A stretch of DNA of 64,000 bases from a virus. How positions within the stretch are numbered: the stretch's first letter is position 1; each line of letters begins with the position of its first letter. The notes under the pieces were generated by a model. That model was given only the letters and a program-made list of their open reading frames with translations. It ran no database searches and was not told where the DNA came from. This document shows positions 2,862 to 58,393 of the stretch, piece by piece. Location of the stretch: IMG/VR virus record IMGVR_UViG_3300025536_000012, positions 3,496 through 67,495 of that record; one strand, written 5' to 3'. Position numbers and translations under genes: made by a program.

Positions 2862-4676
2862 ATGGGACGCGAAAACTCATTCAAGATGTACGAAGAACCG
2901 ATCCGCACGGAGTATCGCGAATCGGATTCTCGTGACATCGAGAACTTCTACGAGGGGCTTACCAATCGTAGGACCAAAGTCGCCCAACTCGGTGATGCTT
3001 CCGTTGCCTTCATCACGATGAAGAAGCATGCGATGGAGAAATGCGCCAAGTGCGGATCCACAATGATGAAGGAGAAATGCTCCAACGCTGATTGTGGTGA
3101 AGTGAAGATGGCTGGACTCATCAGCTCCGCTAAAGGCGTCGGCACTCGAGCTCTGAATGCGGTTAAGAAGAATCCTGCCATCACTGGAGCTGCTGTTGGA
3201 GCTGCGGGTGGAGCCATTGCTGGTGGCCCCGATCACCGTCTCAGTGGCGCCGCGGCCGGTGCTGGTCTTGGCGCCGCTGCTGGTCACGGAGCTGGAAAGC
3301 TGATGGCTCGAGGTGCTGCAAAGGCGGCACCGGCAGCAGCTGCGAAAGCGGCTCCGGCGGTAGAATCAATGGCGAACCCGGCAAACGTTGTTTCTTTGCC
3401 AAATCCAAACAAAACAGCCGTGATGCCAGCCAAGGGTCCGCACAACATCACCAAATCGTATGGTCCAGGAGAAGCTCCAGGATCTATGTCTGCCGCACCT
3501 GCTACGCCAGCACCGGCTCCGTCTGGTCCTACTCCTGTTCCCTGGGAAGCAGCACCAGGAACCGCTCGTGCTCAAGTACAAGCAGCGGCAAACCTGCCGA
3601 TGCCAGCAGGAGCTCGTACATCGGGTCTCGCCGAACCCGGAAGAGTACCAACTATGCCTTCTACTCCTGTAGCTAAAGGCACGGCTCCTGGAGTGGCAAA
3701 CCAATCTCCCGATGCTGTTGCAGCAGCGCGCCAGGAAATGATGGGTGGAACCCCCATGGGAGTTGGGCAGGCCAAGGGAACTGGTCCCGCTCCTGGATGG
3801 GTTCCTCCGCCCTCGAATAAAACGCAAGTCATGCAGAAAGCCGCGGCTTGGCTGCCCCCTTTCGTCGTAGCTGATGGTCCCTCGAATGCCGCTTCAAGCG
3901 GTGGGCTGTCGGCTGTGAAAGTAGCGTTCAAGATGCCGAAGATTCCTGCCTCGACCATCACCAACATCGTCGAGGAGATGGCAGATCTTGGTCGTCGCAA
4001 GCTGCAATCCGAACTGTCTGTTCAGGCAGAGAAGAGAAGGCGGAAGGAGAAGAACGCTTCTCCCTACGATGACACTTCGCTCATGGACATGAGACAGAGG
4101 GCAGCTGAAAAGTATCCAGAACGGGTGTCTCCTATCGAGGCAATCCGTACCGATTTCAAGAAGGCGTTGAAACTTCTCTCGGACAAAGTTCACGATCTCA
4201 GAACAGAACGAACGGATATCGCTTCTCCGAAGATTGCCATGCAGAACATCCTTCATCATGATGTTCCTCTCAACGCAAATGAGTTTCGAGCTCATCGAGA
4301 GAAGATTGCTGCCGAAGCCGGACTCGACATGAAGGAGATGGCTCAGATGGGCGGTATGCCCAAGACTCTGATGACTCCTAGAGGTGCCGGCTTTGCTGGT
4401 GCCGGAGCTCTCATTGGCGGAGCGATGGGATTTCTAGGTTCTCGTGGCAAGCCAGAGCTCGGTGGTAAAAGCAAGGTTGAGGTAGAGCTCGGAGCTGCAC
4501 GCGATCGTCAACCCGAGAAACCCGATGGTATCGGCGCCACGATCGGAAAACACGTCACTAACATCCACGCCGATGTCGCAGAGCAGATGAGAAAGCATCC
4601 TGTTGTCGCTACTCTCACGGGTGCCGGCGTTGGAGCCGGTCTTGCTCTTCGCGTCGCTTCTATGCTCGGTAAGTGA
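2862..4676 (+). CDS. Ala/Gly-rich virion-associated protein (604 aa)
   Basis: Long ORF with an SD (aaggggggaacATG). Extended AGAAVGAAGGAIAGG and AAAKAAPA tracts, plus a zinc-ribbon-like CAKCGS...CSNADCG. Confidence 0.6.
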   Translation: MGRENSFKMYEEPIRTEYRESDSRDIENFYEGLTNRRTKVAQLGDASVAFITMKKHAMEKCAKCGSTMMKEKCSNADCGEVKMAGLISSAKGVGTRALNAVKKNPAITGAAVGAAGGAIAGGPDHRLSGAAAGAGLGAAAGHGAGKLMARGAAKAAPAAAAKAAPAVESMANPANVVSLPNPNKTAVMPAKGPHNITKSYGPGEAPGSMSAAPATPAPAPSGPTPVPWEAAPGTARAQVQAAANLPMPAGARTSGLAEPGRVPTMPSTPVAKGTAPGVANQSPDAVAAARQEMMGGTPMGVGQAKGTGPAPGWVPPPSNKTQVMQKAAAWLPPFVVADGPSNAASSGGLSAVKVAFKMPKIPASTITNIVEEMADLGRRKLQSELSVQAEKRRRKEKNASPYDDTSLMDMRQRAAEKYPERVSPIEAIRTDFKKALKLLSDKVHDLRTERTDIASPKIAMQNILHHDVPLNANEFRAHREKIAAEAGLDMKEMAQMGGMPKTLMTPRGAGFAGAGALIGGAMGFLGSRGKPELGGKSKVEVELGAARDRQPEKPDGIGATIGKHVTNIHADVAEQMRKHPVVATLTGAGVGAGLALRVASMLGK

Positions 4677-6144: not shown

Positions 6145-7040
6145 GGTTGAAGGTCACCAAATTATACGCTCGAAGCTTCGATCTCGATTATCTCGATCTC
6201 TACTGGGAGATCGAATCGTTCGAAAGAGCGCAGGACGTCATCACTGCCTACGAGTTCACGATCCTACGATCTGAATCTCCAGAAGGCCCATTCAACAAAT
6301 TGGCTGGTCCGTTCAAGGATCAGTATCGATTCCGAGACTTCAGCCAGAACCTCCTCCACAAGTGGAGACAGCTCTACTACAAGCTCCAAATCCGTCATGT
6401 TCCAACTGACGAAACGGTGGATGCAGGAGTCTGCACGCTCGAGGCAGAGCCAGATCTGATTGCTCTCGAGATCCAGCGTCAAGAAGACGTCCTCTTTCGA
6501 GAGTTTGTTGGACGTCCGTGTTGGCTTTTTCCTGTTCGTATGTTTGGAGAGAAGTGCACGTGTTTCGATCGAGTCATGAACCGTCAGACTCACTCGAACT
6601 GCATCACCTGTTTCGATACTGGATTCATTGGTGGGTATATGACGCCCATCGAGATCTGGATGCAGATCGATCCAGACTCCGGTAATCCTCAAAACACCTC
6701 AATTATCGGCGAGATTCAACCAAAGAACACTTCATGTCGTGTTGGTCCCTATCCACCCATCAAGGCTAAAGACCTCATAGTCGAAGCCGAGAACAGGCGT
6801 TGGAAGGTGGTCACACAATCCGGAACAGAGAGACTACGAGCCATTGTTCACCAAGAGCTCTCACTCCACCTCGTAGTGAAGGGCGACGTTGAATTCAAGC
6901 TTCCAATCAACATCTCAGATTTGAGACGTACATGGGCGCAAGAAAGAAACTTCACTAACCCTCAACACGTCGACGACATGGACTACAAGGAGAGCGAGCT
7001 GCTGGATATCTACGACGGCAGCCCGCGAGGTGCCCAGTGA
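6141..7040 (+). CDS. Cys-cluster virion protein (299 aa)
   Basis: CTCFD...HSNCITCFD cysteine cluster. Sits inside the structural block. Confidence 0.55.
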   Translation: MRLKVTKLYARSFDLDYLDLYWEIESFERAQDVITAYEFTILRSESPEGPFNKLAGPFKDQYRFRDFSQNLLHKWRQLYYKLQIRHVPTDETVDAGVCTLEAEPDLIALEIQRQEDVLFREFVGRPCWLFPVRMFGEKCTCFDRVMNRQTHSNCITCFDTGFIGGYMTPIEIWMQIDPDSGNPQNTSIIGEIQPKNTSCRVGPYPPIKAKDLIVEAENRRWKVVTQSGTERLRAIVHQELSLHLVVKGDVEFKLPINISDLRRTWAQERNFTNPQHVDDMDYKESELLDIYDGSPRGAQ

Positions 7041-8146: not shown

Positions 8147-11100
8147 ATGGCCGAACTTCCAAGACCGGGCGTCGAAGTCATTCAGCAGTTTCAAGCTGCT
8201 TCACCGACTGTCCTGAACCCCACACTTGTTCCGTTCGTAACGGGACCCGCAAAAGAAATCGTCGAGTTCCTGAACTCAGACGGTTCCATCAACACAGGTG
8301 CCAAGCAGGGTACTTACGAGCAGCTTCCACAGGTAGTTGCCCAGAGTGCCTTTCCCTCCCCACGCAGCAACATTGCTGAAGTGAATGTCGAGGAAGGTAC
8401 CATTGAGGCAGCTATCCTATTCGGAGGAAAGCTCTCTCAGCTCGATCGCGACCCCGGCTCTGCCTTCTTGGTGGGCTGGAACAATGCTCGTCGTGCGGCC
8501 TATCGTTCTCCAGAAATCACTGGTGCCGGACTCGCTCTCGACGGTTTGACTCTTGTCATCGCCATCGACCAGACGGTTCGTCTGAACGTACTCAGCGATA
8601 TCGCTATCACCTTCGCCACAGTCGGAGGCGGTAACCTCACCGCTGCACAGATCGCAGACCAGATCAACGATGCCGTTGGTGAAGACGTCGCCTCTGTCAT
8701 CGAAGTCGGTGCTAACTTCCGTGTTCAGATCGCCTCGACCCTTTGGGGAGCTGGCTCTTCTGTCACCATTCGTGCCGGCGGTTCTGCTAACGCTCTGATG
8801 GTATCCCTCACCGACTCGGTCGAATACCGTGTGGAGGCCGCAGGCTTCTACGCCCAAGATCAGGTCGATAACACCACTCTCTCGCCGTACATTGTCTGGA
8901 GTCGGGGTGTTAAATACCTCGACGGTGTTGCTACCGCCTTCGGAGTGGCCCTGGCTGCCGACGCCAGCTTTGGTCAGATCTACCTCGACTCGAGCGACGT
9001 TGAAACCTACGAGGAAGCTCAGGCTTCGAACATCACCTTCACTGGTGGCGGTTCAATCGATCTCAAGGTCGGCGATTACTTCGTTGTGGATGGCGTTCGT
9101 CCGAACACGTCCGCTGAAGTCTCTCGTGTGGAGACGACTCGCTTCAAGCTTGGAATCATTAACACAGCGCTCTCCACGTTCGATGACGATGGGGATATCC
9201 TGACTGCCGTCTACGACGACAGCAAGGTCAACACTCTTCTCTCCAGCGTCCCATTCTCTCCGCACTATGCGTGGTTCAAAGCCCGTAAGCTTGCGGGAGA
9301 GAATGTCGCTGCCACCGCAGCAACGATGACCGGCACCAAGCTGGGAACTCCTGCAACGGTTGCAACTATCCTCGGCGTCGGTGCCGGTGCTGGTCCATTC
9401 GCTCTTGCTGGTCTGACTCTCAAGACCACACTCACGCTGGATGGAGAAATTCAGGACCAGTATACCTTCACCTTCACAGGTGGACCCTTCGCCGACATGG
9501 CAGCCGTTGTTGCGGTGATCGATATCGATGGGATTGTGGCTTTGGACGCTTCCGGCCAGCTCCGTCTATCGACCACAAGCACTGGTGCTGATCAGGCTCT
9601 GAGTCTAGATACTGGATCATCCGCAGCAGCCGTTCTCGGATTCGCAGCTCTTCCGACCTCTGATATCGGAACTGATGTCGAATTCAAAGATATGGCTGCT
9701 GTTCTGACAGGTGCAGCTCAGACTTTCGCGTTCACTGGAACGATCGGTCATACCCTTCTAGTCGATGTATCGACCGATGGGGGGCTCACCTATCCAGTTA
9801 CGAGGACCTTCACGCATGATGCGGGGTCGATCGGTCCTCATGCCAACATTACCGCTCTTATCGCTGCTCTCAACACAGCAGCTCGATGGGATGGCGGTGT
9901 TTTCCCAACCCAGTTCACGATCACGAACACCGGTAACCAAGTCGTTATCACCTCTACCGCAACGGGCGGTGGTGTGGCTCTTCGGATTGGTGCTGCTTCT
10001 ACCGGTATCTTGCCGGGTGCAACAAATGCCCAGCTTCAGTTCGCTGCTAGTGTTGCTGACATCGGTGAAGAAAACCTTCAGGGTCTCACCCTCAAGCTAC
10101 GCCTTAACGATCGTCCAGACATCTACTCCGTAGTCTTTCAATCCGACTCACTGGATGATGCGGTTGCTGAGATCAACGAGGTTATCGGCTTCTCTGTTGC
10201 CTCTATCGGAGGCGGTTCTCTTAGTCAGCTCGTACTGACGAGTCCTTTGGAAGGTGCGGCCTCCAGGATCGAAGTCGTTGACGATACAGTCAACATCCGC
10301 GGCTATTTGGCCTTCGGTTTCACCTCGAATCAGTCGGCTGTCGGTACTGGTCGTCCCAACCCGGATTTCCGGGTCGACGACTTGGGTAATGCCCTCATTG
10401 GAGGAGAGCTTCTCCGCAATGCAGTGACGGGCAATCCATTCAGCAACTCGATCGCAGACCTGTACATCCAGTACACCGGTCTCCGTCTCGACGTATCTCC
10501 CCTGGCAGCCAGCCCAGCTCTTCTCTCCATCAGCGACGTCACGACCCTCGAGCAGGTTCTCGGTCCTCTGAACCAGAACAATCCTCTCGGTCTCGCGATG
10601 TTCTTTCAGATCATCAACGCCCCCGGCATCGCTTGCAAGGGTATGGGTGTTTCTGGATCTTCTGCTGCGGAGCCCGAAGGAACGTTGACCGCGTACACGC
10701 AGGTCGCCTCGTTCATTCAAAGCGAAGAAGTCTACGCAATCTGTCCTCTGACGTCAGCACAGACCGTTCATGAAATGTTCACAACTCACGTGGGCTTCAT
10801 GTCCGGAGCGGCTCAGAAGGGCGAGCGTATCCTCATCACGTGTCCGCTGGATCCTCTTCGCGATAACGACACTGTCGTATCTTCTGGTCTTTCGGCCAAC
10901 ACTACGGCTACTCCGAACCAGCTCACTCTAGATACGAACCCCAATCAGGGTCTCATCGACAACGGTATCAACCCAGCTCTTCCGATCGATGAGGAAGACG
11001 AGGTCTATATCGAGCTAGCTGTAGTCGTTGGAGCCCTACAGGAGGTTCGTCGATACAGTGTTGCCTCGGTGAATGGTGTCCTCACCACGTTCCGTACGAC

Positions 11101-11869
11101 GTTCACGGGAGACTTCAACATCGACGGTTTCTACACCACGACTCCACTCACGGAGACGTTGGTGAACGCCAACTGGTCAATGGAGATCCGTGGATCCGAG
11201 CTCCTGATCCCTGGCTCTACACTACTCGACAAGGATCGGGTTGCCGCAACAGTAGCTGCTCGAAGCGAATCGATCGGCAATCGTCGAGTCATCTCCCTGT
11301 TCCCCGATACCGTAGTAGCGGTGGTCGAGGGTTCAGATCAGGAGCTCGAGTCATTCTACTACGGTGCCTGCATGACCGGCATGGTGGCCTCAAATCCACC
11401 ACAGCAGGGATTCACCAACCTACCCTCGACGGGCTTCACTGGTGTGAAGGGCTCGCAAGACTCCTTCTCTACCTCGCAGCTCAACATCATGGCGGGTGGT
11501 GGAACGTATATCATCGTTCAGGATGCCCAGGGCGGTCCGGTTACCTGTCGTCATCAGGTCACAACCGACCTGACTTCTACGGAAACCAGAGAGTTCTCTA
11601 TCACCAAGATCGTGGACTTCGTTGCGAAGTTCATGCGTACAGGTCTCCGGAACTACATCGGAACGTTCAACATCACCCAGCCGTTCCTGGACATGCTGTC
11701 TACAGTCATTCAGGGACAACTTTCCTTCCTGGAGGAAGGTGGTGTTATCCTCGGCGGTGACCTGAACAACCTGATTCAGGACAAGGACAATCCGGACACC
11801 GTCATTGTCGACATCACTCTCGACGTTCCCTACCCCTGTAACTACATCCGCCTCACCCTCGTGATCTAA
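8147..11869 (+). CDS. large tail-sheath-like structural protein (1240 aa)
   Basis: Strong SD (gaggagcatttaagATG). The N-terminus MAELPRPGVEVIQQF resembles the conserved PG(I/V)Y/E start of contractile-sheath proteins. Long, Thr/Ala/Gly-rich with internal repeats. Confidence 0.45.
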   Translation: MAELPRPGVEVIQQFQAASPTVLNPTLVPFVTGPAKEIVEFLNSDGSINTGAKQGTYEQLPQVVAQSAFPSPRSNIAEVNVEEGTIEAAILFGGKLSQLDRDPGSAFLVGWNNARRAAYRSPEITGAGLALDGLTLVIAIDQTVRLNVLSDIAITFATVGGGNLTAAQIADQINDAVGEDVASVIEVGANFRVQIASTLWGAGSSVTIRAGGSANALMVSLTDSVEYRVEAAGFYAQDQVDNTTLSPYIVWSRGVKYLDGVATAFGVALAADASFGQIYLDSSDVETYEEAQASNITFTGGGSIDLKVGDYFVVDGVRPNTSAEVSRVETTRFKLGIINTALSTFDDDGDILTAVYDDSKVNTLLSSVPFSPHYAWFKARKLAGENVAATAATMTGTKLGTPATVATILGVGAGAGPFALAGLTLKTTLTLDGEIQDQYTFTFTGGPFADMAAVVAVIDIDGIVALDASGQLRLSTTSTGADQALSLDTGSSAAAVLGFAALPTSDIGTDVEFKDMAAVLTGAAQTFAFTGTIGHTLLVDVSTDGGLTYPVTRTFTHDAGSIGPHANITALIAALNTAARWDGGVFPTQFTITNTGNQVVITSTATGGGVALRIGAASTGILPGATNAQLQFAASVADIGEENLQGLTLKLRLNDRPDIYSVVFQSDSLDDAVAEINEVIGFSVASIGGGSLSQLVLTSPLEGAASRIEVVDDTVNIRGYLAFGFTSNQSAVGTGRPNPDFRVDDLGNALIGGELLRNAVTGNPFSNSIADLYIQYTGLRLDVSPLAASPALLSISDVTTLEQVLGPLNQNNPLGLAMFFQIINAPGIACKGMGVSGSSAAEPEGTLTAYTQVASFIQSEEVYAICPLTSAQTVHEMFTTHVGFMSGAAQKGERILITCPLDPLRDNDTVVSSGLSANTTATPNQLTLDTNPNQGLIDNGINPALPIDEEDEVYIELAVVVGALQEVRRYSVASVNGVLTTFRTTFTGDFNIDGFYTTTPLTETLVNANWSMEIRGSELLIPGSTLLDKDRVAATVAARSESIGNRRVISLFPDTVVAVVEGSDQELESFYYGACMTGMVASNPPQQGFTNLPSTGFTGVKGSQDSFSTSQLNIMAGGGTYIIVQDAQGGPVTCRHQVTTDLTSTETREFSITKIVDFVAKFMRTGLRNYIGTFNITQPFLDMLSTVIQGQLSFLEEGGVILGGDLNNLIQDKDNPDTVIVDITLDVPYPCNYIRLTLVI

Positions 11870-11922
11870 ACCAGAACCCTAGTTCGAAAGGGCCGGGTTC
11901 CGGCTCGATACAGGAGATACCA

Positions 11923-12366
11923 ATGCCCGCAATCTTTGGTGCAGGAAATCAAGCTCTCGCAGCCGTTCAGAGCCTGGCAAACCGTGGCGACAACCTCGCA
12001 ACGGTTATCATGTCCATGCTCAACAACACCTACTACCTGGCAATGGTGCCTGGTGCAGAAGCTGGTGGCGGTGCCGCTGCCAACTCCATTCGTGTTGCCT
12101 GTCAGGTTCGAGATCAGGATGGCAGTGCCGTTGCCGGAATCAAGAACATCCTCATCACGTCGAAGCCGATCGCAGGAGCTGGTACCATTACCGATGGTGG
12201 TGCCGGTGCCGTCGTCGCTGGCTCTGCTTCGGTTTCGTGTTGGATGACCACCGATGCAAATGGTGCCCTTCAATTCGACGTGCTCAACGCTTCTGCCGAG
12301 ACCAACCTCGTGAAGGCAGAGCTCGACAACGGCACTACGGAGATCATTGTTCTCACCTTCGCCTGA
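11923..12366 (+). CDS. Ig-like domain protein (147 aa)
   Basis: SD (caggagataccaATG). A beta-rich SIRVACQVRDQDGSAVAG pattern is typical of Big/Ig-like folds. Confidence 0.5.
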   Translation: MPAIFGAGNQALAAVQSLANRGDNLATVIMSMLNNTYYLAMVPGAEAGGGAAANSIRVACQVRDQDGSAVAGIKNILITSKPIAGAGTITDGGAGAVVAGSASVSCWMTTDANGALQFDVLNASAETNLVKAELDNGTTEIIVLTFA

Positions 12367-16864: not shown

Positions 16865-18940
16865 TCAATGTCGGAGGAACCGTACGAACTCTCGAAGCAC
16901 CACTTCGAGCAAGGCTTGTCCTATCTCAATTGCGGGCACTCGACGCCAGAAGGAAGGAGGACCGAACATCTCGAGAGCGTCTGCATCCGTGATTTCGTTT
17001 CCAAGGATGACGGTATAGATCATCACCTTCTTCGTTCGTGCGTACTCAATCTCCTTCCGAACGAAACCCATCAACGCTTCTCTAGAAATGTCCTTGCCGT
17101 CGACCTTGAATTGGGTTGGATTACCGTCAGTGAGAAGAAATAACCTCTTCTTCATTCCAGGCGGAGTGCTCGATGCGAGGTGCTTCACCGCAACGTGAAT
17201 TCCCGTGTGTGTGGGAGTCATGCCATCACATGACACCGGTATAGTGCTCTTCTGGTTCGCGTAGAGACCCTGTGCCTCCACCTCAGTCGCTAAATAACCA
17301 TCACAATCCTTGTGGTACTTGTAGATCCACACCTCACCACCGTTTGTGAGGGCAGCGATCTTTTCTTTGATCGTGGGATAGACACCAAAGTCCTTTCCTA
17401 TGGCTCCTCGAAAACCCCACAGATTTCCGCGTACGAATGGATAGTCTAGAGCTCGCTTGAGCATCTCAGATCCGATGCAGACGTAGTTGAATGGATTGCC
17501 GGTCATGGACCCTGACATGTCACAAAGCGTCAGATAGGAGAACCCGCGATCAAATCCGTCGTCCTCGAATACTGCATCATCTTGGCCATCCATTCGATAT
17601 TGGATCATTGCCTGTACATCGATTTCATCTCCGTCGTCAACAAGTCTGGAGATCTTTTTGCCGATGAACTTCGCAAAGACCGAGCGCATCCGATCAATTT
17701 GCTCTTCTTCATCGAGGGGAATGACGATGCGAGCATTGGGCGAGATGTGTTTGGGCTCTACATCGGCGATGAGCACCTTGGCAGCAGCTTCGGTAAGCAG
17801 AAACTGGTTCTTGCTGAGCTCTCCTTCCGATGCTCTCTGAAGTGCCTTGATTGCGCCTTCCATATCTCCATCGACTGGAACCTTGAGCCCCATAGATTGG
17901 AGTGTGGGGACTTCTTCCTGTTTCCCCTGCATCGGCATGTTGAAGATCTTGGCCAGCGCCGCCTCATCAGAGATCTGTAGCTTGTGGAGAGGGTTTACTG
18001 TCTTGTCGTGCTGGCTGAGCTGGTAGTGCTCTTGGTCTCGACGGAACGTGTGTGCTCGGTCAGAGAGCTGCTGCGCTGCCTCATCTCTGGTTTCGGGCCG
18101 TGCCTGCGACTGTGGAGATTCTCTATCGTCGCTCTTGTCTCCACTTTCCTGCTGCTCTTCCTGTCCTTCACCTTTTTCTTCTTCCTCGGGAGGATTGATG
18201 AGTCGTTCCAAACACTGCTCGAGGAACCAGCGCACAACGGCCAGCATATTGGCCGCACCACGTCCCTTCACAGCCTCTGTAGCCTTACGAGCTAGCGGGA
18301 CTAGATCGTGAAAAGGTCCTTTTCTCCTATTGAGATTCTCGGCATCCAGAGCCACGCCGAAGATCCAAGAGATGAAGTTCTCATTGAGGTCTGGAGCAGC
18401 CTCTGCGAGCTCCTTCCACTTCAAGGCGATCTCTCCTGCTGAACCTGGATAGACGAGAGACCACAAACTGTTCACGCGTAGATCGTCGAAAGCCTCAACG
18501 ATCTGACGAATCAACACCTCTACGTGAGCTCCGAAATGTGCTGAGTACATCGTCACGAACCTGTGAAACAGAGCCGGAGACGATTTGAATATGATGTGAC
18601 TCCACTCGTGCTCGAAGCTGCGATAGGCGTACATCATGCCGCAGCGATAGCAGGACATCTCTGTTCCTGGACGAATAATGGCTTCTCGTCGTGCCATCGA
18701 AGTATGCCCACAACTCAGAAGGCACTCCACCGGGCCATACACCTCGATTACTTTCTGGATCACGACCTGGCTGAAATTCACAGCCACGAAACCGACGATG
18801 TTGGTGCTCGAGACCTTGTCTTCTTTGAGGACGATCTTCTTATCGAACAATCCGTTGAAGATGTGGTTGGTTTTGTAGAAGGGGTCCTTGCTTGGGATGT
18901 TGAACTCTGGATCTACGTACTCAGACAGCGGTCGTTTCAT
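16865..18940 (-). CDS. CobT-like VWA-domain protein with N-terminal HExxH motif (691 aa)
   Basis: MIDAS-like LTLCDMSGSMTG (DxSGS) places a VWA domain at the C-terminus. HEWSH zinc-hydrolase-like motif and an acidic E/Q-rich linker. Confidence 0.65.
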   Translation of the reverse strand: MKRPLSEYVDPEFNIPSKDPFYKTNHIFNGLFDKKIVLKEDKVSSTNIVGFVAVNFSQVVIQKVIEVYGPVECLLSCGHTSMARREAIIRPGTEMSCYRCGMMYAYRSFEHEWSHIIFKSSPALFHRFVTMYSAHFGAHVEVLIRQIVEAFDDLRVNSLWSLVYPGSAGEIALKWKELAEAAPDLNENFISWIFGVALDAENLNRRKGPFHDLVPLARKATEAVKGRGAANMLAVVRWFLEQCLERLINPPEEEEKGEGQEEQQESGDKSDDRESPQSQARPETRDEAAQQLSDRAHTFRRDQEHYQLSQHDKTVNPLHKLQISDEAALAKIFNMPMQGKQEEVPTLQSMGLKVPVDGDMEGAIKALQRASEGELSKNQFLLTEAAAKVLIADVEPKHISPNARIVIPLDEEEQIDRMRSVFAKFIGKKISRLVDDGDEIDVQAMIQYRMDGQDDAVFEDDGFDRGFSYLTLCDMSGSMTGNPFNYVCIGSEMLKRALDYPFVRGNLWGFRGAIGKDFGVYPTIKEKIAALTNGGEVWIYKYHKDCDGYLATEVEAQGLYANQKSTIPVSCDGMTPTHTGIHVAVKHLASSTPPGMKKRLFLLTDGNPTQFKVDGKDISREALMGFVRKEIEYARTKKVMIYTVILGNEITDADALEMFGPPSFWRRVPAIEIGQALLEVVLREFVRFLRH

Positions 18941-19941
18941 ACCGCTGCCCTAGTGCTGTTCCACTTCTCCTTGGCCTTGAATCCGGCAAAGCTTGAGCTG
19001 ATTCGAGCCGCCACGGTCTCTTTGTCCTTGCCCTCGAACTTGTGGAAGAGCATCTGCAAGGCCGATTCGGGCCCTAGAAGCAGGATGGTCCTCAATAGCT
19101 TCACCACGTCTCGAGTAGAGAGGGCATAGCTGAGGCTGTGTCTCTTCTCTCTGGTCTCAGCGGCCAACGTGGTGCAACCCAGAACGAAGGCATCGAAAGC
19201 AACTGGATCCATACCCACCGGTATAGGTACATTGGCTTCCAAAATGGCCTTCTCTTGGCTCTGTGTGGGGTAACCGATCTCAACCTCTACCCATCTAGAC
19301 CGGAAGTCTTCATTGAGATCGTAGGTGCCTCCGTAGAGAGACGGATTCATGAGACCAACAGCCCAAATCTGAGCTCCAGCTCTCAAGCGATAGGTCTTGC
19401 CAGCTTGAGGAATGGATACCGACTTACGGAAATCGAGAAACTCATTGAGCTGCTTTTGTGTCTGAGGTGTGAGGGCATTTACCTCTTCGAAGGCGATGAT
19501 GGCTCGACCGTACTCGTTGGCAACATCGATGGCGGTGGCCATGCTGCCCAACATGAAGGGCGTCTCACTACCTTTGAAGAAGAAGTTACCGATCAAATCT
19601 TTCTTCTTGATATCTTCACTACACGGTACAGTGATGGTTGGAGTTTGTGTAGTCGCCGCAAGAGCGATGAGGGAGAGGGATTTACCATCTCCTTTGGGCC
19701 CCCGTACAAGTAGATTCTCGTTGAACATCAGCTTGTGGTAGAGGGGAATCAGGTTGAAGACATCCACGTATGGAGGTGTGGAGGTGTACATGAAGTCTTC
19801 GATAGGGGATCGCACAATGGAGATATCTGACTCTCCGTTAGACATCTCGAGTTTCAACGAGGCGAACTGAGATGGAGTGAGCTCGCTCAACCACTTTTTC
19901 CACATAGACATTTCTTTCTCCTGGCAAAAAATGAGGCGCAC
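18937..19941 (-). CDS. MoxR/CobS-like AAA+ ATPase (334 aa)
   Basis: Walker A LLVRGPKGDGKSLS, Walker B-like AIIAFEEVNAL. ATGA overlap with the downstream VWA partner, a typical arrangement. Confidence 0.7.
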   Translation of the reverse strand: MRLIFCQEKEMSMWKKWLSELTPSQFASLKLEMSNGESDISIVRSPIEDFMYTSTPPYVDVFNLIPLYHKLMFNENLLVRGPKGDGKSLSLIALAATTQTPTITVPCSEDIKKKDLIGNFFFKGSETPFMLGSMATAIDVANEYGRAIIAFEEVNALTPQTQKQLNEFLDFRKSVSIPQAGKTYRLRAGAQIWAVGLMNPSLYGGTYDLNEDFRSRWVEVEIGYPTQSQEKAILEANVPIPVGMDPVAFDAFVLGCTTLAAETREKRHSLSYALSTRDVVKLLRTILLLGPESALQMLFHKFEGKDKETVAARISSSFAGFKAKEKWNSTRAAV

Positions 19942-19969
19942 AAGCCGCCCCTTAGAATCTCAGATCTCA

Positions 19970-20740
19970 TCAGATCATCGTTATGGTCCAGGGAAACGAT
20001 TCCTGAACCAACATACGGAAGCCCGAATCTATCAAATCCTGTCGACTTCCGGTTTGCCCAGACCCGCCCACACAATTCCCCCCGATTCTACGAGAGTTGT
20101 AGTTGATCGGACCTCCGAGCGAGTTGGTATCTCGCTTGAGTAAAACGTTAGATGCCGGCACCCAGAACAGCACATTGCTGAACGTTGGAATCGGAGACGT
20201 ACCAATCGCATTGACAAACCCGTTACCACTACACCCGGTGGTGATGTAGAAGATCTCAGGCGCAGGAATCGAGAGGACAATGAAGTCCTTTGGAGCCTGC
20301 GATGTGTTCTGTGTTACCTGGTGGCCGTAGAATCCGGCAACAAGAGGATCCGAGGCTCGGTAGTTGGCCGAGACCGGAAGACCGAGCTCCCGTCCATCCA
20401 TCGTCGGACCGCCTGCAATCAGTATCAGTCCCGATCCGGCAGGACCAGCCGGGCCTTGCGGTCCAGTCGCTCCAGTTGCACCCGTGGCCCCGGTAGCACC
20501 AGTGGCACCTTGAGGACCCTGACTGCCGGTATCGCCCTTCGGTCCCTGAGGTCCTTGCGGACCAGTAGCTCCAGTAGCGCCGCTACTACCCATAGCGCCG
20601 GTAGAACCCATAGGACCTTGAGGACCGGTATCTCCCTGTGGTCCCTGAGGTCCTTGGGGCCCCACAATATCTCCAGTATCAGTCGCATCGCTGCCACATC
20701 CCATCACGCATGCCATCAGAACAATAATCACCTTCGACAT
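19970..20740 (-). CDS. collagen-like repeat lipoprotein (256 aa)
   Basis: About 30 G-X-Y triplets ([19 protein letters not shown]...GATGATGATGATG). N-terminal signal with lipobox-like [11 protein letters not shown]. Globular C-terminal domain. Confidence 0.7.
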
Positions 20741-24579: not shown

Positions 24580-25039
24580 GTGTTCCTTGTATTGGTTGGG
24601 TCTGACATCGGGCAAAAGAGAAGTCCCACGACTCCTCAACTAACAGCTGCGGCCGGTCGCAACATGTACCAATGTCGCAAGGCCGTTTCGATAACGAAGC
24701 AGGCTGCTTGGAGGATGACCCGCCAAGCGCTGCCAGGATCGAAATGAAAGCTGTAGGCCGCCCGTTCCTGGTGGAATTGGACGGTTATGGAGATCAAGTT
24801 TTAGTTCCAATCCATCTGATCGTAGCGGGCCGAGTGCTTCGGATTTCCGCCGCCAACGAAGCTGTGGTTCTTGTCCTCGTAGACGATCTCACCCTGCGGT
24901 GTCGAGCCCTCTCGAAAGAGAAGTCCTTCTACTTGACCGAGTGGATGCATATGGACGTGAGGGCATGGCTGGAACAGCATTCCTACTACCGACTCTCCTT
25001 TGTCTTTCTTCTCGTCACTCATAGATTTACCTTACCCCA

Positions 25040-25432
25040 CTAGGGTAGCTGAGAACCAGCATCCGTTTTCTTGGATTTGAGATGGTTAGTGATGAACGTC
25101 GTGAAGCTCTTCGAGTCCGCTGGTTTGTCAATGCGAGGAACGTTCTTCAAATCGACAGTAGTCAGTATGCTCTCGGAGCTCGAGTGGAATAGGAAGCTCG
25201 ACAACATGTGAGGCATGTGTTCCGCGAGCCATCGGTAGAACTCGATACCATCCATCTCTGGCATCCGTATATCGCTGACGATCAAATCGATATTCTCGTT
25301 CGAGGTTTTGAGAAACTCTCGAGCAAGACTGCCATCGCAGAAGCCGATGACCTTGTATCTCAACCGAATGAGCAGCTTAGTTGTGGCACGCCGAACAAGA
25401 TCATCGTCTTCAACTAGAAGAACCGTCACCAT
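25040..25432 (-). CDS. stand-alone response-regulator receiver (REC/CheY-like) domain protein (about 130 aa)
   Basis: MVTVLLVEDDDLV...IDLIVSDIRMPEMDG...KP carries the acidic pocket, the phospho-acceptor Asp and the conserved Lys-Pro. SD ttttggaggtcttATG. No output domain. Confidence 0.7.
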   Translation of the reverse strand: MVTVLLVEDDDLVRRATTKLLIRLRYKVIGFCDGSLAREFLKTSNENIDLIVSDIRMPEMDGIEFYRWLAEHMPHMLSSFLFHSSSESILTTVDLKNVPRIDKPADSKSFTTFITNHLKSKKTDAGSQLP

Positions 25433-25507
25433 AAGACCTCCAAAAAACGCCGAAGGGGAAGGGGCGTTCAAGGCCTTATGCCTCCAAAAGGGGTATTATT
25501 TTAGTGC

Positions 25508-25780
25508 TCAGTCTTCTACAACAGGAATTCCAAGACACCTGTGAACAGCTCGAGAGAGGTTCTCACCTGGGATAGTGTCCCACGCAACTGAATGCTCGGA
25601 AACTTGTTTGAACGCGTTGAGATTGGGATCTCCCCATCTGTGGTAGTACCCAACTCCAGTTGGAATGCCTTCTGGATCTAGGAAGAGAATGATCTTCCCG
25701 GCACGATTCTCATCTTCCATGTAGCAGTACCTTTGCGATGTGTGTACGTAGTTTATTGAATCGCCGATTAGAGATGCCAC
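25508..25780 (-). CDS. ORF overlapping the polymerase-like fragments (90 aa); possibly a frameshifted remnant
   Basis: Overlaps 25710-25961 in another frame. Both contain a similar SINY-encoding nucleotide stretch, suggesting local duplication or frameshift. Confidence 0.25.
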   Translation of the reverse strand: MASLIGDSINYVHTSQRYCYMEDENRAGKIILFLDPEGIPTGVGYYHRWGDPNLNAFKQVSEHSVAWDTIPGENLSRAVHRCLGIPVVED

Positions 25781-25961
25781 CGTACGCAGCCAAGATCCTC
25801 ATCTCGAGCTGCGTGTAGTTAATCGAATGAGAGACGTACGAGTGCGGGTAGTCTGACTGATTGAATCGACGCCCAGTCTTCAGCAATACATTGGGGCGCT
25901 CGTCGGTGAAGATTGAATTAATCCTCCCAGTCACCATAGGGATCCCATGGAATACTTTCAT
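25710..25961 (-). CDS. family-A DNA polymerase fragment carrying a motif-A-like segment (83 aa)
   Basis: TGRINSIF...KTGRRFNQSD...INYTQLEMRILAAYGG aligns with Pol I TGRLHTRFNQ...ATGRLSSSDP...DYSQIELRVLAHLSGD. Confidence 0.4.
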   Translation of the reverse strand: MKVFHGIPMVTGRINSIFTDERPNVLLKTGRRFNQSDYPHSYVSHSINYTQLEMRILAAYGGISNRRFNKLRTHIAKVLLHGR

Positions 25962-27165
25962 TCTCTTTCCTCTTCCGATCAGCTTCTTCTGATTTCGCTA
26001 TTCTTCTGCGAAGAGAGGCTGACCAAGCTGCTGAAGCATCCGGGTTGTTCTTGAGGAACTCTTTCCCGTTGGCAGCTAGTTTCTTGTCTGCAAAGCGCTG
26101 TGCGGTTTGAAATTGCCGGATCAGTTCCGGATCTTCGATGGTAGCGAGAAGCCAATCTCCCAACTCTGTGGACTTCCCTACAGCTCGAGACTTCTTGTAG
26201 AGAATAGGCTTCTCTGGTTCGACGAATTGCCCAAGTACCTCTCTGACGAAGTGTTTGTCATCTGCAAGGAAACGTCTCCGCCCATTCAATATGGGTACGT
26301 AACCCTTCTTCCTCGCCTGCTCTCTGGCCCATGCTTGATACGCCTCTAGAGTCGTTCTAGTCAGGTAGTAGGCTTCTCGACGGCAGTAATATTCAGATCC
26401 CTCTTCTGGAATGATGTGGTAGGCCCGCCATTCGATATTCTCCACATCTCGTCGATGAAGAAATAGCTCTCGAGCACAGCCTTCGCAGAGAGGTTCGTTC
26501 AATTCTCTAGGATAACTTGAGCTCTTTGGTGTGTCCTTCACACTCAGGCGCCCAGTCATCGATCCACCGTAAAGACTGTTGAATAACTGTTCCTTTTCCT
26601 TTTTAGTTCTACGAGGGATCTGTCCTGCCCTTGGTGGGCTTCTGGTATCGAACTTTCCAGTCAGAGGATCGCTCCACTCTCTGGCATGTGGATGGATTGG
26701 GATGTCGAATGGGACTTCTCCGTAAGCCGATCGATACTTCTCCACGATATCTTTGGTGAGCTCTTCGGTTCGCTTCTTGATGAGCTCTCCCCACTCCTTC
26801 AAGAATGCTTCTCGATTCTCCTCCGGTCCGTCGAAAGTGATCTCGTCATGTAAGAAGGTCATCGTGAAACTGTGTTTCTTGCATAGTTCTCGATACGCTT
26901 TGTACTGGCTAATCGCGTAGTGATAGCTTGCACCAGCCATTTCCTGCTCAGACAAACGGAACATGCTACCCGCGGAATCAGGTTTAGGCGTAACTGGTAT
27001 TGTTGGAGGAGGTGGAGGCATCTCGTCGAGCTGCTTTGGCTCAGACAAGAGGTACGTGGTCGTCTTTGATGGGTTGCATAGTCCGCACTCCGTCAAAACT
27101 TTTCCAGCTAGATCGAAGCCCCAGTTGATGTGTCCGCACGGCCACATTGGATCGCCTGTACTCAT
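25918..27165 (-). CDS. protein with family-A DNA-polymerase-like segments in non-canonical order (415 aa)
   Basis: FLHDEITFDGPEEN...VPFDIPIH..REWSD resembles the Pol I motif C to C-terminus. YQAWAREQARKKGYVPILNGRRRF resembles the Pol I segment VRAWIEKTLEEGRRRGYVETLFGRRRY. N-terminal CxH..CxxC. Confidence 0.45.
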   Translation of the reverse strand: MSTGDPMWPCGHINWGFDLAGKVLTECGLCNPSKTTTYLLSEPKQLDEMPPPPPTIPVTPKPDSAGSMFRLSEQEMAGASYHYAISQYKAYRELCKKHSFTMTFLHDEITFDGPEENREAFLKEWGELIKKRTEELTKDIVEKYRSAYGEVPFDIPIHPHAREWSDPLTGKFDTRSPPRAGQIPRRTKKEKEQLFNSLYGGSMTGRLSVKDTPKSSSYPRELNEPLCEGCARELFLHRRDVENIEWRAYHIIPEEGSEYYCRREAYYLTRTTLEAYQAWAREQARKKGYVPILNGRRRFLADDKHFVREVLGQFVEPEKPILYKKSRAVGKSTELGDWLLATIEDPELIRQFQTAQRFADKKLAANGKEFLKNNPDASAAWSASLRRRIAKSEEADRKRKENESIPWDPYGDWED

Positions 27166-27176
27166 GTTGTTCCTGA

Positions 27177-29599
<2,423 letters not shown>

Positions 29600-56538: not shown

Positions 56539-57933
56539 ATGAACTCGGTAGAGCTTGCGGCCTTCAGCGACGAGCTGATGAAGATTGCTGCCGACAAGGA
56601 AAAACCCTTCTGGCAAAAAGCACTGCCATTTGCTGCGGCGGCCGGTGCTGGAGTCCTTGCCTACAAAGGCTTGAGGACACCATCCTTTTCCAAGAACCCG
56701 GCGTTACGGAAAGTTCAAGAGCTCGCATCTAGCAAAGGCTTCCACCGTATCGTCGACGTGACTCCTGATGGAACTGGTGGATTTCTTCGTCCTGTTGCTG
56801 ATGCTCAGGGCAAGCTCTCGCCATTGAACAAGGCCAAGCTGTTCCTGAACGAAGGAACTACAGAAGCCATTCCGATCACCTACACCCCGAACCAGGCGGG
56901 TAATTACTCCACCAAGGTTGTTGGTCAGAAAGGTCCGAGACAGGTAGAGGGTGTCGTTCATGGACGTCCTGATATTTACGGACGTGACAAGGCGGTTCGC
57001 GGAGGTGTGGATGTCGAAGGTACCCCTGAGGTGCAGAGAGCGATGACCAACCTTGCTGCGGGTGGAAAGAGGAGTGAAGCAGATCTCCTCAGCAAGCACG
57101 CCCCTGAAGCAATCCCAGAGACCTTCACGGATCTATCTCCGATGTTCAAGAAGCTCCCGAAGGATCGGCAGCAAGCCATCAACGAGCTCCGTAACAGAAT
57201 CAGAGCAGCCCATGGAGAGAATGTTCTACTGAAGCCGAACCAGGGCCTGTCTTCTGGAGGCAAATTTCCTCGATCCAATCAAGACTGGGGAGCTCAACTT
57301 CGGACCTACGACGAACACATGGCAGATCCAGTCAAGAGAAAGGCGTATCGAGCTCTGAAGGGTGAGGACAATGCTCTTGCCGATTATTCGAAAGAACATG
57401 GATTGTACGAGGGCAGTGTGCTTCACAATGCGCTCAAAGATCCGAAGTCGATGCTTGCTCAGAAGATAGTAGACAATCCAATGGGCGAGTGGAGAGTGCA
57501 TACTGTTGCAGGAGAAGCTCCGAGAGGGTTGATGACTCCCAGGTTCGCTAGCAACCCAGCAAAGACTCTAGCTGCTCGTGCCGGTGTTGGAGATGCCAGC
57601 ACCAAAGAACTCCAGCAATTCGTAGAGCAGGATATTCTACAGAAACTACCAAAAAATTATCGCGAGGGTAACTACGCCTTCGATGTCATGCCACATCGGA
57701 AGCCTGATGGCTCCATCGGGTTCAAGACCATCGAGATGAATCCAGCGGAGAGAGCGAAGAGCCAGAGTCTATCTGGTGGAGGATCGGGGTTCTTGGATAC
57801 AGCAGCCTCTCCGTTCTCTGGACTAAAACATTACCGCGCCGTAACTGGCAGACATACACCCCTAGTTGCTGGACTAGGAGCCGCCGGAGCCGCAGGCGCT
57901 ACCGGAGCAGTTACAGGGACCGTGGGCGAATGA
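56539..57933 (+). CDS. ATP-grasp superfamily ligase (RimK/GshB-like) with N-terminal extension and Gly/Ala-rich tail (464 aa)
   Basis: NVLLKPNQGLSSGGK matches the ATP-grasp P-loop-like VIKP..G.GG. EWRVHTVAGE matches the (D/E)xRV.VVGGE strand. YAFDVMPHRKPDGSIGFKTIEMNP matches the G.D......G..(V/I)E(V/M)N..P catalytic region. Confidence 0.6.
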   Translation: MNSVELAAFSDELMKIAADKEKPFWQKALPFAAAAGAGVLAYKGLRTPSFSKNPALRKVQELASSKGFHRIVDVTPDGTGGFLRPVADAQGKLSPLNKAKLFLNEGTTEAIPITYTPNQAGNYSTKVVGQKGPRQVEGVVHGRPDIYGRDKAVRGGVDVEGTPEVQRAMTNLAAGGKRSEADLLSKHAPEAIPETFTDLSPMFKKLPKDRQQAINELRNRIRAAHGENVLLKPNQGLSSGGKFPRSNQDWGAQLRTYDEHMADPVKRKAYRALKGEDNALADYSKEHGLYEGSVLHNALKDPKSMLAQKIVDNPMGEWRVHTVAGEAPRGLMTPRFASNPAKTLAARAGVGDASTKELQQFVEQDILQKLPKNYREGNYAFDVMPHRKPDGSIGFKTIEMNPAERAKSQSLSGGGSGFLDTAASPFSGLKHYRAVTGRHTPLVAGLGAAGAAGATGAVTGTVGE

Positions 57934-58393
57934 TCAGTCCTTCGTTGTTCCATCGCTTCTCGAACTGAGAGATCGAGCTCTCACGGAATAACTGACTTTT
58001 CCAACTTGGATCAGACAGGTAGACCGTGTCCTCTTTCTCGTCGATGGCGTAGACAACTCCGTAGTGATCTCCGTCCAGGCCAACCATCACTACATTGTCT
58101 GTAGCGATAGCCTTTACCAGATCTCTCCAGGACATCTTCGGTCTTCGGCCAACACGCATCCCATGAGAACGTAGGAAGCGTATGACTGGAGCCTCTGCTG
58201 TCCCGTCCGAATCCGTCTTGAGCTTCTCGTACACCTCTCTGTAGCTGACATCGACTCCGAAGAACGAAGTGATGGCATATACACAACACGGCCCGCAGGT
58301 GTACGACGTGAACTGAAACTTACGCGGAAAGTCTGCAAACCCGACGAGAGAATCTGATCTCTTATCGGGGATGCCGAGAAGTAGACCCAGCAT
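57911..58393 (-). CDS. C39-like (papain-fold) cysteine peptidase domain protein (160 aa)
   Basis: YTCGPCCVYAITSFFG matches the Peptidase_C39/C39_2 catalytic-Cys block (N.CGP..L.M.L.YYG). DGDHYGVVYAID supplies the His block. Its 3' end overlaps the ATP-grasp gene convergently by 23 nt. Confidence 0.6.
   Translation of the reverse strand: MLGLLLGIPDKRSDSLVGFADFPRKFQFTSYTCGPCCVYAITSFFGVDVSYREVYEKLKTDSDGTAEAPVIRFLRSHGMRVGRRPKMSWRDLVKAIATDNVVMVGLDGDHYGVVYAIDEKEDTVYLSDPSWKSQLFRESSISQFEKRWNNEGLIIRPRSL

Follow-up and report, generated by a model that had tools for sequence, protein, structure and literature searches.

A locus of viral DNA that carries pieces of a family-A DNA polymerase (PolA), in an order not collinear with that of Pol I and on more than one reading frame, raises the question of what kind of gene, living or decayed, these pieces belong to. 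The locus lies in a 64,000-nucleotide (nt) stretch (the window; positions 3,496 to 67,495 of IMG/VR record IMGVR_UViG_3300025536_000012), whose sequence is contained in a 212,233-bp metagenomic contig, ENA ERZ27300258 k141_24263. Three overlapping minus-strand open reading frames (ORFs) are present there, as an earlier sequence-only reading had indicated: ORF1 (25918-27165), ORF2 (25710-25961), and ORF3 (25508-25780). That reading had offered four explanations, namely a decayed pseudogene, a gene disrupted by a mobile element, a programmed-frameshift gene, and a genuinely rearranged polymerase-derived protein. The last is the one borne out by the analysis, as the ORFs are intact and conserved in diverged relatives and their PolA blocks score above shuffled nulls. 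ORF1 and ORF2 are thus considered, with a probability of roughly 0.55, to be a real rearranged PolA-derived pair of a jumbo phage, which has kept palm pieces only and serves in a non-catalytic accessory role. Sequence comparison establishes the homology to PolA, the non-collinear order, the conservation of both ORFs, and their placement after gyrB.

Homology to PolA in a non-collinear order

Relatedness was assessed with a PolA profile of 12 sequences, in which E. coli Pol I and T7 gp5 were combined with ten diverse phage PolAs and against which separate blocks were aligned by hhalign, each with column-shuffled nulls (60-100 shuffles). Three separate blocks reached P values of about 5e-6 to 4e-5, and no shuffle came close. 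The first is a motif-C/C-terminal block near the N-terminus of ORF1, where it had been placed by the sequence-only reading: residues ~73-160 align to E. coli Pol I (Eco) 848-916 with a score of 37.3 versus 9.5±1.5 for the null. This block runs FLHDEITFD ... VPFDIPIH, with the HDE codons at 26842-26850, so that the beta-hairpin of PolA motif C is recognizable in ORF1. HDE is found in the window protein and in most family members, and nine members have an HDE block that falls on positions 440-488 of the PolA hidden Markov model (HMM), i.e., Eco ~867-912, while the sequence IQGTASDIL of member P0002 maps to Eco ~847-858. In an AlphaFold2 model of ORF1, only the C block is confident (predicted local distance difference test >90), comprising a helix, a beta-hairpin with HDE at the turn, and a second helix.

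A pre-motif-A (preA) block follows in ORF1, with a score of 35.6 versus 10.7±1.9 for residues 196-262, aligned to Eco 658-722. In seven members, the TGRxS block corresponds to HMM positions 233-259 (Eco 658-684), and an alignment with Bst Pol I matches TGRLSS to the same block. It had been held that neither motif A nor motif B lies between the C block and the linker; motif B is indeed absent, but the preA block (residues 196-224) had been overlooked. Judged from these alignments, the TGRLS inside ORF1 is the true pre-motif A.

Motif A itself is found on ORF2, as had been proposed. The ORF2 sequences of four lineages gave a score of 40.9 versus 11.7±1.8 (Eco 664-743; P=5e-6, probability 86%, 0/100 shuffles), and the score is still 35.8 when the overlapping N-terminus is left out; in the HMM mapping, the ORF2s fall on Eco 698-720. 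The motif-A strand and helix correspond to NYTQLEMRILA at 25788-25820, in which Asn replaces the catalytic Asp, and a DIH..TA-like segment follows. The TGRINS of ORF2, which had been taken for its pre-motif A, is a different matter: it is encoded by the same nucleotides as the DWED-stop tail of ORF1 and is not conserved (TGK in lineage L010, absent in L001), and it is therefore probably a by-product of the overlap. ORF2 also contains an 11/12-nt direct repeat (25755-25766 and 25860-25871) that gives RRFN twice (GRRFNQ and NRRFNK), probably by chance.

The fingers-to-palm linker block that had been noted in ORF1 was recovered as well. Residues 262-310 align to Eco 788-832 with a score of 13.2 versus 6.9±0.9 (null maximum 9.5), and Pfam PF00476 (profile 242-280) matches residues 264-302 with E=0.006 and 16 bits. 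Positions 360-403 of the PolA HMM match with 12.3 bits, and phmmer against PDB aligned residues 251-309 to Taq 683-739 (E=0.016), with a weak second stretch of residues 90-123 to Taq 771-801. The segment, which contains AWAREQARKKGYVPILNGRRRF and whose remnant can also be written GYVPILNGRRRF, occurs only in the lineage of the window and is a gap in every other family member.

Comparisons at the level of whole proteins gave the same picture. In hmmsearch --max with the PolA profile, none of the 492 six-frame decoy ORFs from the window reaches the scores of ORF2 and of eight family members (ORF1 16.3 bits, best decoy 4.6 bits). When a profile of the 14-sequence ORF1 family was compared with PDB, 58 of the 60 matches listed were family-A polymerases (Bst Pol I, E=0.019), with TGRLSS/motif A at positions 108-238 and motif C at 44-85, that is, in swapped order. 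A PHROG "DNA polymerase" family matches ORF1 (E=3e-4). PF00476 is the only Pfam family matched by more than one member (three of 14 at E<=1), although the 16 bits of ORF1 (E=0.0061) do not reach its gathering score of 34.3 bits; ORF2 gave no match to PF00476. NCBIfam and PADLOC searches with ORF1-3 yielded nothing except a non-significant RT_VI palm match (E=0.059).

A chance resemblance of short motifs (HDE, TGR, GRRR, and YxQxExR), without common ancestry, would be in keeping with library E-values that are all weak (0.006-0.55) and below curated cut-offs, and with a TGR in ORF2 that is demonstrably an overlap by-product. This explanation is nevertheless highly improbable, since each of the three blocks falls on the appropriate PolA region at the P values given above, the family outranks every decoy, the PDB matches listed are essentially only PolA, and the secondary structure predicted in the C block agrees with that of the motif-C hairpin. 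Common ancestry with PolA is thus well supported by sequence statistics, though structurally unconfirmed.

The sequence-only reading had given the order as C, linker, A, and block-wise alignment agrees that this is not collinear with Pol I. ORF1 has motif 6/C/beta14, preA (TGRLS), and the post-motif-B linker, and motif A follows downstream on ORF2 in the +1 frame, whereas PolA has preA, A, B, linker, motif 6, and C. The motif-C block precedes the TGRxS block in at least seven family members. C, preA, and linker alone would be compatible with a rotation of the PolA order; a clean circular permutation does not hold, because motif A comes after the linker and the tail, on ORF2, instead of between preA and linker.

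Several parts of a polymerase are missing. No domain match to motif B/O-helix (RxxxKxxxFxxxYG) at HMM ~325-345 (Eco 754-770) was found in any member or in ORF2, and hhalign leaves this region unmatched as well. All four ORF2 lineages have Asn where PolA has the catalytic Asp of motif A (E. coli D705), motif A is in frame in no family member, and thumb and exonuclease are absent from both ORFs. Lacking motif B/O-helix, and with Asn invariably in place of the motif-A Asp, the pair is unable to act as a canonical polymerase; it belongs to the family-A polymerases by ancestry and not by membership, as it lacks four of their defining features. It does combine what characterizes an inactivated polymerase, i.e., polymerase homology, loss of catalytic and substrate-binding motifs, and retention as an intact gene.

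That ORF1 and ORF2 rebuild a catalytic palm, as a polymerase or nucleotidyltransferase that is split or permuted and highly divergent yet active, is also conceivable in view of the conserved HDE of motif C and of the clustering of the kept motifs around the PolA active site, as established by known structures. For jumbo phages, minimal polymerases in split form have already been proposed (PMC7824862), and no other polymerase appears in the 81 kb of the contig that was read. However, without motif B/O-helix there is no canonical binding site for deoxynucleoside triphosphates (dNTPs), the Asn of motif A is found in every ORF2, ORF2 is missing at several family loci, and the true polymerase may lie in the remaining 131 kb of the genome. 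Such an enzyme is quite improbable.

The other parts of ORF1 have no counterpart established in PolA. The N-terminal WPCGH...CxxC is kept in 11 of 14 family members (alignment A3) and, from its Cys/His pattern, may bind zinc. A putative CCHC module is kept in seven of 14. HMMER had aligned this module with motif A (DVxxIEWRAYH versus DYSQIELR), a candidate that was rejected, as six of 60 shuffles of the module alone reach the score and the Asp is not conserved. The C-terminal region is the most conserved part of the family, and its tail may serve in protein docking. A suggestion by hhalign that the conserved tail is a second copy of the PolA linker was discarded, given that four of 60 shuffles of the tail alone reach the score. 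The positions of all these features are listed in Table 1.

Table 1. Genes and segments of the locus, in minus-strand order
Feature	Position in window	Strand	Description
gyrB (704 aa)	27177..29291	-	Pfam GyrB domains; conserved upstream neighbour of ORF1
ORF1 (415 aa)	25918..27165	-	PolA-derived protein with putative zinc modules, following gyrB
N-terminal WPCGH...CxxC, residues 8-31	27073..27144	-	Putative zinc ribbon; not PolA-like
PolA C-terminal block, residues 73-160	26686..26949	-	Motif 6-like start, motif C hairpin, beta14-like VPFDIPIH
Pre-motif-A block, residues 196-224	26494..26580	-	TGRLS at 26542-26556, then YPRE
CxxC...H...C module, residues 227-261 (CEGC..WRAYH..YYC)	26383..26487	-	Putative CCHC zinc finger
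Post-motif-B linker-like segment, residues 260-305 (YQAWAREQARKKGYVPILNGRRRF)	26251..26388	-	Aligned to Eco ~787-830
Conserved C-terminal region, residues 365-415	25921..26073	-	FLxxxPEASxxWSxALRxKI helix, then acidic/aromatic tail HWDPYGDWED
ORF2 (83 aa from first ATG; 75 aa from ATG at 25937)	25710..25961	-	+1 frame over ORF1 end; motif-A segment
ORF3 (70 aa from real ATG at 25720)	25508..25720 (listed as 25508-25780)	-	Conserved small gene, unrelated to PolA

Conservation of ORF1 and ORF2 and the alternatives it bears on

The ORF1 family is tiny, comprising 14 clusters among 1.84 billion representatives (a word-indexed search gave only 4-5). The homologues are intact ORFs of 180-415 amino acids (aa), 26-47% identical to the window protein, with strongly conserved termini. 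An intact, ATG-started ORF2 is present in four lineages (the window, L001 at 9106-9306, L010 at 1065-1280, and L028 at 6701-6922), always in the +1 frame over the end of ORF1, with overlaps of 44 (or 20), 8, 20, and 50 nt, respectively. These lineages are ~40-47% identical; NYTQ.EM is invariant and NYTQ(L/M)EM(R/K) occurs in all four, and codon differences follow the order position 3 > position 1 > position 2. L001, L002, and L003, in which population variation for dN/dS was sought, are identical over the compared ORF1-ORF2 region. The ORF1 homologue of L028 (~6440-6550; NCBI JAWVHB010019195.1) appears split into 199 and 66 aa around an N run (XXXX), probably a scaffolding gap.

It is on this conservation that the case for a pseudogene turns. 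In a decaying polA, the phage would no longer need the polymerase and the open frames would be incidental, which could account for the lost catalytic Asp and absent motif B, for the lineage-specific retention of different PolA fragments with many indels, and for a slot after gyrB that varies from 139 to 415 aa and holds an unrelated gene in L025 and L027. Yet ORF1 is unbroken in all 14 clusters despite their divergence, its N- and C-terminal motifs, which are not of PolA origin, are strongly conserved, and ORF2 is open with its ATG and its invariant motif in four lineages; neutral DNA so diverged would not hold frames of 66-83 codons open four times. Decay is accordingly an unlikely account of the locus.

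A programmed +1 ribosomal frameshift, which would yield an ORF1-ORF2 fusion protein, draws on the constant frame of ORF2 in all four lineages and on the fact that this frame is open some way upstream of the ATG in L001 and L010. The constant frame relation, however, is expected from common descent, while the length of the overlap is variable. No shared slippery or stop-codon-stimulated motif was seen at the three junctions inspected by eye, a separate ATG opens every ORF2, preceded in the window and L001 by Shine-Dalgarno-like purine runs, and no family member has motif A in frame. A shift would also delete the acidic tail, the most conserved feature of ORF1. Frameshifting is hence improbable, and ORF1 and ORF2 are probably co-transcribed genes that are translationally coupled.

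Frameshift sequencing errors at about 25780 and 25940, which could have broken a single collinear polymerase ORF, had also been suspected, a view that has nothing in its favour beyond the look of the overlapping frames. Three assemblies, each from a different sample (ENA ERZ27300258, JGI 3300001798, and Logan SRR6213120), show 100% identity across the 1.8-kb region, which excludes such errors; the same architecture occurs in diverged relatives, and joining the frames would still not give a collinear order. There is virtually no chance of an artefact. The disruption by insertion or excision of a mobile element that had been considered finds no support either: no Rfam match at E<=1 was obtained in 24900-27400, no intein, HNH, or LAGLIDADG endonuclease was found at the break, and Pfam, PHROG, NCBIfam, and PADLOC gave only PolA-type polymerases.

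ORF3 had been counted among the polymerase pieces, which did not hold up. It scores -3.6 bits against the PolA HMM, among the decoys, and is an unrelated gene that starts at ATG 25720, overlapping the end of ORF2 by 11 nt. The SINY-encoding stretch that had been described as a repeat lies upstream of this start, and a repeat search gave only matches of 12-20 nt at chance level. Homologues of ORF3 are present in L001 (11486-11701), L010 (3507-3722), and L009 (1748-1981); no family match was found for it. Its sequence is MEDENRAGKIILFLDPEGIPTG...CLGIPVVED, and an ORF of 71-72 aa occupies the same position in L024 and L026.

Several observations weigh against a conserved, rearranged PolA-derived pair. 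Besides the marginal database-level E-values (0.006-0.05, under the Pfam gathering score), ORF2 is missing from more distant family loci (L009, L024, and L026), and a split palm cannot therefore be general to the family. Different lineages keep different PolA pieces, GYV..GRRR being confined to the window lineage and QGTASDIL to P0002, and the slot that follows gyrB is hypervariable, with an unrelated protein in L025 and L027, a pattern that also fits ongoing decay. Finally, the proposed functional role is purely inferred. The compared loci mark the slot as a hot spot of gene replacement, and they are consistent with an exapted gene that evolves fast and continues to lose its ancestral parts. 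The unrelated slot protein (139-141 aa; L025 9119-9538, L027 9128-9553) has two Cys/His clusters that flank a coiled coil.

Genomic setting

From gyrB, the minus-strand order is ORF1, ORF2, ORF3, a hairpin with a U-run, and a stand-alone response-regulator receiver. Only 11 nt separate the gyrB stop from the ORF1 start. In six loci, gyrB is followed directly by the ORF1-type gene (X), and the family follows gyrB wherever the upstream gene is visible. The general arrangement in the relatives is a gene for a major vault protein (MVP)-like protein, small genes, gyrB, X, (ORF2), an AAA gene, ORF3, a 140-aa gene, the response regulator, a 400-aa gene, and a MazG-like gene. In L001 and L010, the AAA gene sits between ORF2 and ORF3. 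The window lineage and L009 have lost the AAA and 140-aa genes, and as a result of this loss ORF2 and ORF3 of the window now overlap by 11 nt.

Regarding the lost genes, an AAA ATPase of 690-856 aa and a gene of 136-145 aa lie between the gyrB-adjacent slot and the response regulator in L001, L010, and L024-L027; for L001, the region 9368-12143 was compared with window 25432-25720. The ATPase of L024-L027 shows a weak nSTAND3 match, and in L028 at least the beginning of the AAA gene is present, after which its contig ends. The response-regulator receiver (25040-25432, minus strand; PF00072, E=2e-15) is kept in all relatives reaching that far; the TTG at which it is listed to start is probably incorrect, as homologues begin MVTVLLV.

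The hairpin at 25442-25469 (minus strand) between ORF3 and the response regulator consists of GAACGCC, an 11-nt loop, and GGCGUUC, followed by U6, and from its sequence it would end a gyrB-ORF1-ORF2-ORF3 transcription unit. Its folding energy is unexceptional (z=0.14), and a promoter/terminator scan of the locus showed nothing notable.

The phage GyrB shares 65-69% identity with its counterparts in Myxococcota (Kofleriaceae/Myxococcales), which suggests capture from a myxobacterial host; the PF18053 insert of Myxococcota GyrB is missing from it. The phage probably infects a member of Myxococcota. Among the scanned window ORFs of at least 150 aa, none resembled a GyrA partner.

The window is part of the genome of an uncultured myovirus-like jumbo phage. 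A major head protein is encoded at 119-1240, and a 1240-aa ORF (8147-11869, plus strand) carries a tail-sheath domain (phrog_279) limited to its C-terminal 200 residues, with no match for its first ~1000 residues. In agreement with the sequence-only reading, no intact replicative polymerase is seen in the window: Pfam recognizes no polymerase, helicase, or primase in its ORFs of at least 150 aa. The search for a complete polymerase elsewhere came out negative for record positions 34,227-115,574, the 81 kb read of the 212,233-bp contig, where no conventional polymerase, helicase, or primase was recognizable. INPHARED searches (megablast and tblastn) gave no match to the phage, and scans of IMG/VR, JGI metagenomes, and GTDB genomes with the family alignment or GyrB as query gave no confirmed relative.

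Some other genes of the window were also observed. An 875-aa MVP-like ORF (30561-33188, minus strand; PF11978 MVP_shoulder, weak Vault_3) precedes gyrB, as does a counterpart in each of the relatives for which this upstream region was retrieved; reports of viral MVPs have so far come from gut phages (bioRxiv 10.1101/2023.11.10.566534). In the stretch 16865-20740 (minus strand), a collagen-repeat protein (19970-20740) has as neighbours an AAA_5 (MoxR-like) ATPase (18937-19941) and a protein of 691 aa that weakly matches VWA (16865-18940). A stand-alone peptidase C39 of the bacteriocin-processing type (57911-58393, minus strand) stands amid small early-type genes.

Possible role and comparison with known systems

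In PolA, as known from the Klenow, Taq, and Bst structures, the Arg of TGR, the H/D/E of motif C, and the E/R of motif A surround the primer 3′ end and the palm metal site. Since residues of this kind are kept while the dNTP-binding fingers are gone, a non-catalytic role in binding the primer terminus is favoured. The most likely, though weakly supported, function of the pair would be that of a zinc-stabilized DNA-end/primer-terminus-binding accessory of the replication/topology module of the phage. Both genes would descend from a family-A DNA polymerase of which only palm-subdomain pieces were kept and rearranged. ORF1 would comprise a Zn-ribbon-like N-terminus, motif 6/C/beta14, preA, a putative CCHC module, a lineage-specific linker remnant, and a helix with the acidic/aromatic tail, which may dock a partner protein. 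ORF2 would comprise the motif-A strand and helix, may supply the missing first palm strand, and might complete a small split palm of RNA-recognition-motif-like fold together with the motif-C hairpin of ORF1. The protein would be made together with the host-derived GyrB.

A bolder proposal, which is rather unlikely, is that the motif-C hairpin and ORF2 form a minimal, split, fingerless PolA palm with a new activity, such as capture or capping of 3′ ends or nicks in gyrase-linked replication, or non-canonical nucleotidyl transfer. If true, such a palm would be, to our knowledge, the first natural rearranged palm-only family-A derivative. If the pair folds as a mini-palm, it would show how far a polymerase core can shrink and be re-wired under selection, and would add a component to the replication/topoisomerase module of an unstudied, probably myxobacterial, giant-phage clade. 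For annotation, the weak PolA match at this locus must not be taken as the polymerase of the phage.

With the family-A polymerases (PF00476; E. coli Pol I/Klenow, Taq, Bst, and T7 gp5), the favoured PolA-derived pair shares motif 6, motif C, the C-terminal strand, TGRLSS, GYVxTxxGRRR, and a DYSQIELR-like segment. It differs from them in its order (C, preA, linker, and then A on a second polypeptide), in the lack of motif B/O-helix, thumb, and exonuclease, in the change of the motif-A Asp to Asn, in the addition to ORF1 of two putative zinc-type modules and an acidic tail, and in its sub-threshold Pfam score.

Inactivated and reused polymerases are known for family B. The chordopoxvirus protein F12 is an inactivated family-B polymerase (PMC4304020), and inactivated PolB paralogues occur in archaea, as does an inactive module in eukaryotic Pol epsilon (PMC4104785). 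Like these, the ORF1/ORF2 pair is a conserved polymerase derivative with lost catalytic residues and presumably another job, and, as with F12, it resides in a large virus genome. However, F12 and the inactive PolBs are collinear, full-size members of family B, whereas ORF1 and ORF2 are rearranged palm fragments of family A on two overlapping genes. No PolA derivative that is rearranged or reduced to the palm came up in a literature search: no family-A case of an inactivated, reused polymerase was found described, nor any case in which only palm fragments are left, reordered, and split over two overlapping genes.

The other system to be compared is the split minimal DNA polymerase III alpha module of group 2.2 jumbo phages (PMC7824862). 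In both cases, a polymerase core of a jumbo phage has been cut to a minimum and distributed over separate polypeptides. The Pol III alpha module has a Pol-beta fold, is predicted to be active, and consists of halves at distant loci that are not rearranged, whereas ORF1 and ORF2 derive from a PolA palm, have lost the catalytic Asp, and are encoded by genes that overlap.

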